Shown here: in pieces, positions 26,112-26,268 of the stretch | Numbering within the stretch: the stretch's first letter is position 1 | Layout: each line of letters begins with the position of its first letter | Assembly: GCA_001784695.1 (NCBI GenBank) | Contig: MFRV01000004.1 | Span: 1-47,592, forward strand | Direction of reading: 5' to 3' | DNA: 47,592 nucleotides | DNA from: Candidatus Moranbacteria bacterium RIFCSPHIGHO2_01_FULL_54_31 | GTDB taxonomy: Bacteria > Patescibacteriota > Minisyncoccia > Moranbacterales > UBA1568 | Translations under genes and position numbers: made by a program | Notes under the pieces: model-generated | Seen by the model: the letters and a program-made list of their open reading frames with translations, nothing else | Database searches by the model: none | What the model was told of the DNA's origin: nothing

Positions 26112-26268
26112 AAAATCATCAGTTCCGATCCAGACTTGATCGCCGTCCGAACCCCGGCGTGGTTCGGACTGACGCGAGAGCGGCGCTCTCCATCCCGATT
26201 CATCGGGATGGATCCGTGCCCGCTCTGCTCTCGAGTCGCGCTCAAGTCGGATACAGAACGATGATTTT
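26112..26268 (-). ncRNA. Candidate structured RNA or MITE-like element of unknown class: a three-way junction closed by a long helix
   Basis: Ends AAAATCATC(A)GTTC / GAACGATGATTTT pair, and the helix continues with GACTTGA/TCAAGTC. Two internal perfect 9-bp hairpins: 26145-26169 (GTCCGAACC/GGTTCGGAC) and 26190-26211 (CCATCCCGA/TCGGGATGG). Strand is assigned from one G-U pair that would be C-A on the plus strand. Confidence 0.4.

Follow-up and report, generated by a model that had tools for sequence, protein, structure and literature searches.

A folded 157-nt element beside a tRNA-Pro gene of a Moranbacteria genome as a diverged member of a multi-copy three-way-junction repeat family

What is the strongly folded block that separates the tRNA-Pro gene from a small open reading frame (ORF) in Candidatus Moranbacteria bacterium RIFCSPHIGHO2_01_FULL_54_31? 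The block, called element X in the following, lies on contig MFRV01000004.1, of which a stretch of 47,592 nucleotides was analyzed (the window). A first-pass annotation, made from the sequence alone, described it as a three-way junction and took it for either an unknown structured RNA or a MITE. Each of the two proposals turned out to be right in part. According to covariance models, element X is a diverged member of a multi-copy family, as a mobile repeat would be, and the fold of this family is accompanied by compensatory changes, as in a structured RNA.

The helices described in the first-pass annotation are all present in the predicted fold (Table 1). The closing helix, P1, comprises about 27 bp. 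Its outermost segments, AAAATCATC and GATGATTTT (26112-26120 with 26260-26268), are complementary at 9 of 9 positions, and it runs inward via GTTC.../...GAAC and then ATCC-GACTTGA/TCAAGTC-GGAT, with one-base bulges. On both strands, the closing helix has an A-run at its start and a U-run at its end. The short hairpin P3 is a perfect helix of 9 bp. The arms of the apical hairpin P2b are complementary at 11 of 11 positions, which results in 10 bp and a loop of 4 nt, and this hairpin sits within an interrupted helix formed by 26171-26186 with 26222-26237. As RNA, the minimum free energy of the element is -92.1 kcal/mol for the minus strand and -89.2 kcal/mol for the plus strand. Dinucleotide shuffles average about -52.7 kcal/mol (z = -9.3 for the minus and -8.9 for the plus strand), and none of 200 shuffles folded equally well. 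When the whole 724-kb genome was scanned, the best 170-nt window over element X ranked 7th of 23,962 by raw energy. The first-pass annotation had favored the minus strand on account of a pair which is G-U on this strand and A-C on the other. The pair had been placed in hairpin P3; it actually belongs to the closing helix, where the U of GUUCUG faces the G of CGGAAC. Despite this misplacement, the minus strand is supported as the structured strand, as it is the only one that matches the family model described below.

Table 1 Features of element X and of its surroundings, in coordinates of the window
Feature	Position	Strand	Remarks and basis
Element X, whole	26112..26268	(-)	157-nt three-way junction, read 5'->3' on the minus strand; RNA folding and covariance-model match
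P1, 5' arm, AAAAUCAUCGUUCUGUAUCCGACUUGA	26242..26268	(-)	Fold; carries the U.G wobble favoring the minus strand
P1, 3' arm, UCAAGUCUGGAUCGGAACUGAUGAUUUU	26112..26139	(-)	Fold
P2, long interrupted hairpin, first branch on the minus strand	26171..26237	(-)	Fold; aligns to P2 of the family model
Signature GGGCACGGAUCC, 5' side of the P2 internal loop	26210..26221	(-)	Aligned to the near-invariant family motif GCAYGGU(U/G)CC
GGAGAGCG, 3' side of P2	26184..26191	(-)	'A2' subfamily signature; also in congener members L085, L077, L078, L084
P2b, apical hairpin, 10 bp, UGAA loop	26189..26212	(-)	Fold
P3, short hairpin, loop region CACGCCGGG	26145..26169	(-)	Fold; loop is the family signature (CGCYGG), identical in L085, L079
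CCA-adding enzyme gene (cca)	26366-27865	(-)	Upstream of tRNA-Pro
tRNA-Pro(CGG)	26287..26358	(-)	18 nt upstream of element X, same strand
103-aa ORF	25774..26085	(-)	26 nt downstream of element X; without Pfam match
tRNA-Leu(UAG)	25584..25665	(-)	Near the end of the inferred transcription unit
Terminator-like hairpin site	25551-25532		After tRNA-Leu; consensus terminator scan

A comparison with all Rfam models placed element X in no known class. At the gathering score, Rfam 15 matched four tRNAs only in the window and nothing over element X. Over the element, nothing beyond weak matches at chance level appeared at E ≤ 10; SRP RNA, 6S RNA, and self-cleaving ribozymes were among the families compared. 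SRP RNA had already been set aside in the first-pass annotation, and the absence of an Rfam match together with membership in a multi-copy family supports this exclusion. BLASTN detected a second copy of element X neither in its own genome nor in 60 relatives, 36 of them of the same genus, and returned chance fragments only. An exact-pattern scan for both P1 arms gave no match in the public genome collection and one match in metagenomes, a chance match inside a gene.

Two simple origins for the structure were considered and rejected. An intrinsic terminator is a short G+C-rich hairpin directly before a U-tract. In the 157-nt three-way junction, by contrast, the U-run is paired with the A-run, and a simple terminator scan does not call the element, in agreement with the earlier view that it is too elaborate for a terminator. 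Moreover, the closing stem does not appear to be a copy of a neighboring gene end, its likeness to these ends being no better than that of shuffled sequences. With the tRNA-Pro end, it shares the 6-mer CCGACT (655 of 2000 shuffles score as high), and with the ORF start the 7-mer ATCATCG (284 of 2000).

On the minus strand, the CCA-adding enzyme gene is followed by tRNA-Pro(CGG), element X, the 103-aa ORF, and tRNA-Leu(UAG). The ORF is a real gene, since homologues occur in 54 of 61 related genomes, across the order, and the succession tRNA-Pro/ORF/tRNA-Leu is retained wherever the fetched DNA reaches both tRNAs. A promoter-like site was found upstream of the CCA-adding enzyme gene with a consensus promoter scan. 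Together with the terminator scan, it makes a single predicted transcription unit plausible, extending from cca over tRNA-Pro, element X, and the ORF to tRNA-Leu.

Relatives of element X were recognized by their architecture. In the energy scan of the 724-kb genome, more than ten other loci combined a long closing helix with two hairpins, one long and interrupted, the other short, and 14 other elements with the architecture of element X are found in this genome. BLAST sorts the folded repeats of the genome into at least three families, and element X matches none of them at the sequence level. A covariance model (R1) was built from 12 own-genome copies. Applied to the window, R1 ranked element X best (19.7 bits, E = 6e-4, minus strand, full length), a score that is weak when taken alone: owing to their palindromic ends, true members score 20-27 bits on the reverse strand as well. 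A search with R1 also revealed family members in 29 of 36 congeners. Some of these represent a diverged subfamily with AGCGGGCAYGGUUCC ... GGAGAGCG and the P3 loop CACGCYGGG. Element X carries the motifs of this subfamily (GAGCGGGCACGGAUCC ... GGAGAGCG, loop CACGCCGGG). Its GAGCGGGCACGG-UCC, GGAGAGCG, and loop CACGCCGGG match the subfamily members of congeners, and the signature motifs of the family, GGGCAYGGnUCC, GGAGAGCG, and the CACGCCGGG loop, are present as well.

A second covariance model (R2) was made from 39 members of the genus, with element X left out. R2 matched element X with 38.2 bits (E = 1.1e-8) at 26125-26256, covering model positions 1-126. The match is confined to the minus strand, and the next best match in the window reached 11.7 bits. 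Members of the family are about 125-165 nt long and consist of the long closing helix P1, the long interrupted hairpin P2 with GCAYGGU(U/G)CC, and the short hairpin P3 with a CGCYGG loop. Element X has these parts on its minus strand in the family order of P1, P2, P3, and P1. Given the R2 score and its restriction to the minus strand, membership of element X in the three-way-junction family is taken as established. The element has the family core but a closing helix entirely its own. Indeed, AAAAUCAUCGUUCUGUAUCCGACUUGA and its partner arm are dissimilar to the P1 consensus of the family (GCAAGAAUCUUUC ... GAAAGGUUGCUUGC); the outer part of P1 varies also among accepted members.

The family is best described from its own-genome copies and from the genus alignment. 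Family A, i.e., the own-genome set of 12-14 copies, has invariant UUGAA, GAGCAYGGUnCC, GGAU, UUUCA, and loop GCUGG when the copies are aligned in one orientation. Compensatory changes were seen at 22 of 36 predicted pairs among these copies, and in the genus alignment, changes on both sides occurred at 34 of the 36 pairs. In the genus alignment, 93% of the cells are paired compared to 72% in shuffles, and none of 500 shuffles reached any of the observed measures. When the partners were slid by 1-3 columns, pairing fell to 38-52%. The stem of P2b varies freely in sequence with its pairing kept, and its apical loop is variable in sequence and length. Beyond the modelled core, the outer P1 usually adds about 8-12 further bp, of which the sequence differs by subfamily and the complementarity is kept. 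The first-pass annotation had allowed that folding energy or covariation might reveal no conserved structure; both point to one, as none of the 200 shuffles folds as well as element X and nearly all family pairs show compensatory change.

Furthermore, the fold is specific to one strand. In the genus alignment, 69 G-U cells stand against 7 A-C cells, G-U being found at 20 pair positions and A-C at 6. Folding is more stable for the forward strand in 38 of 39 copies, by a mean of 9.4 kcal/mol, and in all 17 copies of a class-wide set.

With R2, the copy number in the genus ranged from 0 to 23 per genome; 35 of the 40 genomes had copies, and 15 were counted in the present one. The class was covered by an even sample, in which R2 at E ≤ 1e-4 with strict filters found the family in 78 of 251 genomes and in 62 of 189 genera, at 1-13 copies each where present. 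Since contigs of the assembly may end at repeat copies, the 15 copies of this genome are to be read as a lower bound. In two congeners (G036 and G001), a family member lies beside the orthologue of a gene which in the present genome (G000) is the first on contig C3, at the contig end (C3:1). Rfam at E ≤ 1 gave no match for 17 loci with copies of the three repeat families of the genome. No published description of such elements was found in the literature, and the three-way-junction family is apparently undescribed.

The two other families in this genome, B and C, are likewise strongly folded intergenic repeats of about 100-175 nt. Family B was found at C3:8853-9016, C14:10049-10212, C9:17590-17737, and C30:13027-13105, and family C at C13:1317-1492, C3:8435-8541, and C27:6929-7022. 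Family B has the ends of family A (CCGCAAGAATYTT ... AAGRTTGCTTGCGG) and another interior, which is the reverse of the situation in element X, where the interior is common and the ends are not. Members of the three-way-junction family also recur in head-to-head pairs about 30-55 nt apart. One such pair is formed by C2:15265-15392(-) with 15443-15568(+) in the present genome. Further pairs are found in congener G004 at C7:2948-3075(-) with 3128-3253(+) and C9:15459-15584(-) with 15637-15770(+), and at loci L074 and L086. The C2 pair of G000 and the C7 pair of G004 each join two members from different subfamilies.

How element X came to lie after tRNA-Pro can be read from the same neighborhood in congeners. 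The tRNA-Pro/ORF gap is hypervariable. Many congeners have 0-35 nt there, and others 46-371 nt of unrelated sequence. In 29 congener neighborhoods with tRNA-Pro, the ORF, and tRNA-Leu, no family member lies between tRNA-Pro and the ORF, and Rfam found nothing in the gaps of congeners. Since the gap is hypervariable and the element is absent from it in congeners, these comparisons show element X to be an insertion specific to this lineage at the tRNA-Pro/ORF gap, and not a conserved syntenic RNA. The first-pass annotation had expected many copies for a MITE or a single syntenic copy for a functional RNA. BLAST detects no further copy of element X itself, and the element is not syntenic in congeners; many diverged relatives do exist. 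The lack of synteny means that element X is not a conserved single-copy RNA gene.

Other sequences occupy this gap elsewhere. A different conserved small fold is located there in G025 (L014:1281-1500), G024 (L018:1807-2135), and G036 (L037:1807-1976). Its end is formed by a copy of the tRNA-Pro 3' end (AATTCCCGGCACYCCGAC), the direct copy reading AAUUCCCGGCACYCCGAC. At least the module of G036 contains a matching inverted piece too. In G036, a direct repeat of the tRNA trailer, about 45 nt long, lies on either side of it, an arrangement which resembles an attachment-site duplication around a very short insert. In G022 (L033:1843-2213), the gap holds a small ORF of about 90 aa that looks GIY-YIG nuclease-like by eye; the spot after tRNA-Pro thus accepts several unrelated inserts.

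Apart from the absence of element X in the 29 congener neighborhoods, the signs of mobility come from the family, whose copy number differs greatly from one congener to the next. Three copies at unrelated loci (C34, C23, and C2a) share 97-98% identity along 146 nt, a stretch that includes the outer helix, and in another species the same subfamily, again with its outer helix, was found at a different locus. Orthologous sites can be filled or empty; in G018, for instance, a copy stands at a site that is a 133-nt gap in this genome. At some sites, several species carry a member, at times from different subfamilies. In element X, the closing helix of about 27 bp corresponds to the terminal inverted repeats of a MITE, and its 157 nt to the size of one, many copies existing at the family level only. 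No target-site duplication is evident: element X is flanked by A-runs only, and the near-identical copies C34, C23, and C2a have no shared or duplicated flank. Neither a larger element with paired family ends around a longer unit nor a multi-copy protein family was found in this genome, and in 16 other genomes no recurrent gene adjoins single-copy members. Insertion into existing terminator hairpins was ruled out, as the three near-identical copies have one outer helix at different loci; several copies with a U-run 5' and an A-run 3' contradict it too.

Two orthologous sites were compared between species. Copy C9:8338-8463 of the present genome (G000) and loci L061 (G008) and L079 (G020) lie at one orthologous site and have different subfamilies and different outer helices. 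The same applies to C9:22808-22955 and L062 (G004), at one orthologous intergenic site. Such swaps of subfamily could result from repeated insertion at hot spots, from recombination between copies, or from fast concerted change.

Element X is a diverged, locally unique copy of a patescibacterial multi-copy structured repeat. In our judgment, this repeat is probably non-autonomous, mobile, and read as a folded single strand. The family would be a selfish or semi-domesticated element without autonomy, copied to new intergenic sites by a host or foreign enzyme that is itself probably encoded in single copy. This enzyme would recognize the folded three-way-junction core on one single strand, either RNA or single-stranded DNA, and not fixed terminal sequences. 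Element X, in which the core is kept and the closing helix is entirely different, fits recognition of the core. Lying in the sense direction within the predicted unit of cca, tRNA-Pro, ORF, and tRNA-Leu, the element is probably transcribed, as suggested by the consensus promoter and terminator scans, and would form a very stable structure that separates the tRNA from the ORF. Its long helix could serve as an RNase III substrate or as a barrier. Such an effect would be a side effect of the element and not the reason for its presence.

Some points weigh against this explanation. There is no evident target-site duplication, and neither an autonomous element with matching ends nor a mobilizing enzyme was found. 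Even without selection, template-switch repair inside palindromes could produce a pattern that resembles compensatory change. In addition, no close relative of element X was found anywhere, and the evidence for recent mobility belongs to the family and not to element X itself. The strong compensatory change and the strand-specific fold are atypical for an ordinary MITE. Indeed, the orthologous sites shared by several species, the compensatory upkeep of the fold, and the unpaired motifs kept throughout the class make the family resemble a functional RNA more than a decaying MITE.

A first alternative builds on this likeness and regards the family, element X included, as multi-copy genes for a functional small RNA, protein-binding or catalytic. 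The conserved junction and loops would be its working part, and new copies would arise by occasional duplication. The covariation at 34 of 36 pairs, the fold of one strand with G-U far above A-C, and the persistence of unpaired motifs across a bacterial class and of copies at orthologous sites in several species are all as expected for such an RNA. Orientation is also largely independent of neighboring genes, as for tRNA genes: relative to co-directional neighbors, 15 members are antisense and 12 sense, and 6 convergent and 3 divergent arrangements were found. However, a range of 0-23 copies within one genus and the absence of a match (E ≤ 1e-4, strict filters) from about two thirds of the class genomes are odd for a needed RNA. 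The flanks of the copies have no consistent promoter or U-tract terminator, the copies are packed 5-40 nt from gene ends, and element X is missing at this site in all sampled congeners. Moreover, the variable single-stranded segments that a guide RNA would need are absent. We consider this alternative rather unlikely, though it carries real weight.

The second alternative is local. Element X might have been co-opted as a cis-acting RNA signal in the transcript of tRNA-Pro, ORF, and tRNA-Leu, either as an RNase III processing site or as a bidirectional terminator or insulator uncoupling the tRNA from the ORF. Its sense orientation inside the inferred single transcription unit would suit this role, as would a closing helix of about 27 bp that has the A-run first and the U-run last on both strands. 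In several congeners (L023, L019, L016), the same gap contains a plain terminator-like hairpin. Most congeners, on the other hand, manage with a gap of 0-35 nt and no such structure, and the simple terminator scan does not call element X. Family members elsewhere are antisense to their neighbors as often as sense, or more, and a role on the sense strand of mRNA is therefore not the general function of the family. A local signal of this kind appears improbable.

It has to be asked, in addition, which enzyme could move such a repeat. According to a third alternative, the family would be a REP/REPIN-like or IS200/IS605-derived palindrome that is moved as single-stranded DNA by a Y1 (HUH) transposase. 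Strand-specific hairpins and the lack of an evident target-site duplication agree with this, and Y1_Tnp is common in the class (149 of 251 genomes). The forward strand also tends to lie on the locally C-rich strand, as judged by GC skew (11 of 14 copies here and 35 of 52 elsewhere, p = 0.018), a 2:1 bias that is not a rule and is confounded with gene direction. Yet this bias puts the forward strand on the leading-strand template, opposite to the strand bias expected for IS608. The Y1/RAYT transposase (PF01797) had no match in this genome, with its 15 copies, or in five sampled congeners, among them G014 with 12 copies and G118 with 8. In the class, Y1_Tnp and the element are uncorrelated, the former being present in 50 of 78 genomes with the element (64%) and in 99 of 173 without it (57%). 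Nor are P2 and P3 two copies of one REP. Transposition by such an enzyme appears very improbable. The Y1_Tnp-like genes of the class are often multi-copy, with up to 9 per genome, and many of them occupy an ORF of about 220-260 aa. None was found in the sampled genomes of this genus.

Two further protein domains were searched for as possible partners. A retroelement-dependent (SINE-like) repeat would call for a reverse transcriptase in genomes rich in copies. RVT_1 (PF00078), however, is absent from this genome and from G014, G017, G025, and G033, each with 11-23 copies. The zero-copy genomes G021, G023, and G032 do have it, and it is uncorrelated with the element. The TnpB zinc-ribbon domain (PF07282), as required for an IS200/IS605-TnpB end-derived element or an omega RNA, was found in none of the 40 genomes of the genus, and control genomes did match.

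Finally, the idea that element X is a unique housekeeping RNA after tRNA-Pro, i.e., a divergent SRP RNA or 6S RNA, could appeal to the fact that no SRP RNA was found in the order with RF00169 (0 of 41 genomes) or RF01854 (0 of 21), but it is refuted in practice by the lack of synteny, the element being absent at this site in all sampled congeners, and by membership in a multi-copy repeat family, to which are added the missing Rfam match at E ≤ 10 and the variable apical loop of P2b, unlike the conserved SRP tetraloop. The search for SRP RNA covered this genome with 40 and 20 relatives of the order, and control genomes gave matches. The SRP RNA of the order is either too divergent for the Bacteria_small_SRP (RF00169) and Bacteria_large_SRP (RF01854) models or missing; with neither model matching, an essential RNA is still unlocated in the order.

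The family matters beyond this locus. The ultra-small Patescibacteria have stripped-down genomes (0.5-1.2 Mb). In this one, about 15 three-way-junction copies of roughly 130-160 nt and at least two other repeat families are nevertheless present, and no transposase was found. The family would represent either an unrecognized way of moving DNA or an unrecognized RNA function in a large, uncultivated bacterial branch. In annotation, the family accounts for many odd structured blocks between genes of such genomes, and these blocks should not be taken for locus-specific riboswitches, leaders, or small RNAs. As a tentative possibility, the family could even be a new class of Patescibacteria elements, mobile units or functional RNAs, that a dedicated protein recognizes purely as a folded three-way junction on one strand. 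Element X would then be an informative natural variant, in which the junction, GCAYGGU(U/G)CC, GAGAGCG, and the CGCYGG loop are kept and the whole closing helix is replaced. It would mark the core as the recognized part and the closing helix as sequence-free.

Among known systems, integron attC sites are recognized as a folded single strand, with free sequence and conserved structure, and larger sites have a branched, variable top. An attC identity was nevertheless rejected for element X. Its GTT...AAC runs opposite to R''/R' (AAC...GTT), neither an integron integrase nor a cassette array is present, and the copies of the family are scattered among housekeeping genes. REP/REPIN sequences with their RAYT are also small, structured, multi-copy extragenic palindromes with a maintained fold; they make no target-site duplication, and none is evident here. 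In contrast to these, the Y1 transposase is absent here and in sampled congeners and has no class-wide association with the family, and the element is not a doublet of one hairpin but a conserved three-way junction with conserved unpaired motifs. Correia of Neisseria, ERIC/IRU of Enterobacteriaceae, RUP of Streptococcus, and RPE of Rickettsia are non-coding repeats of 100-170 nt with long terminal inverted repeats. They are intergenic, form long hairpins in transcripts, and differ in copy number between relatives. Each is confined to a genus or family and conserved mainly in sequence. The three-way-junction family resembles them in being small, intergenic, hairpin-forming, and variable in copy number. 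It differs from them in that no TA-type duplication is seen at its copies, and in that it spans a class, keeps its structure via compensatory change, folds in a strand-specific manner, and has an outer helix free in sequence.
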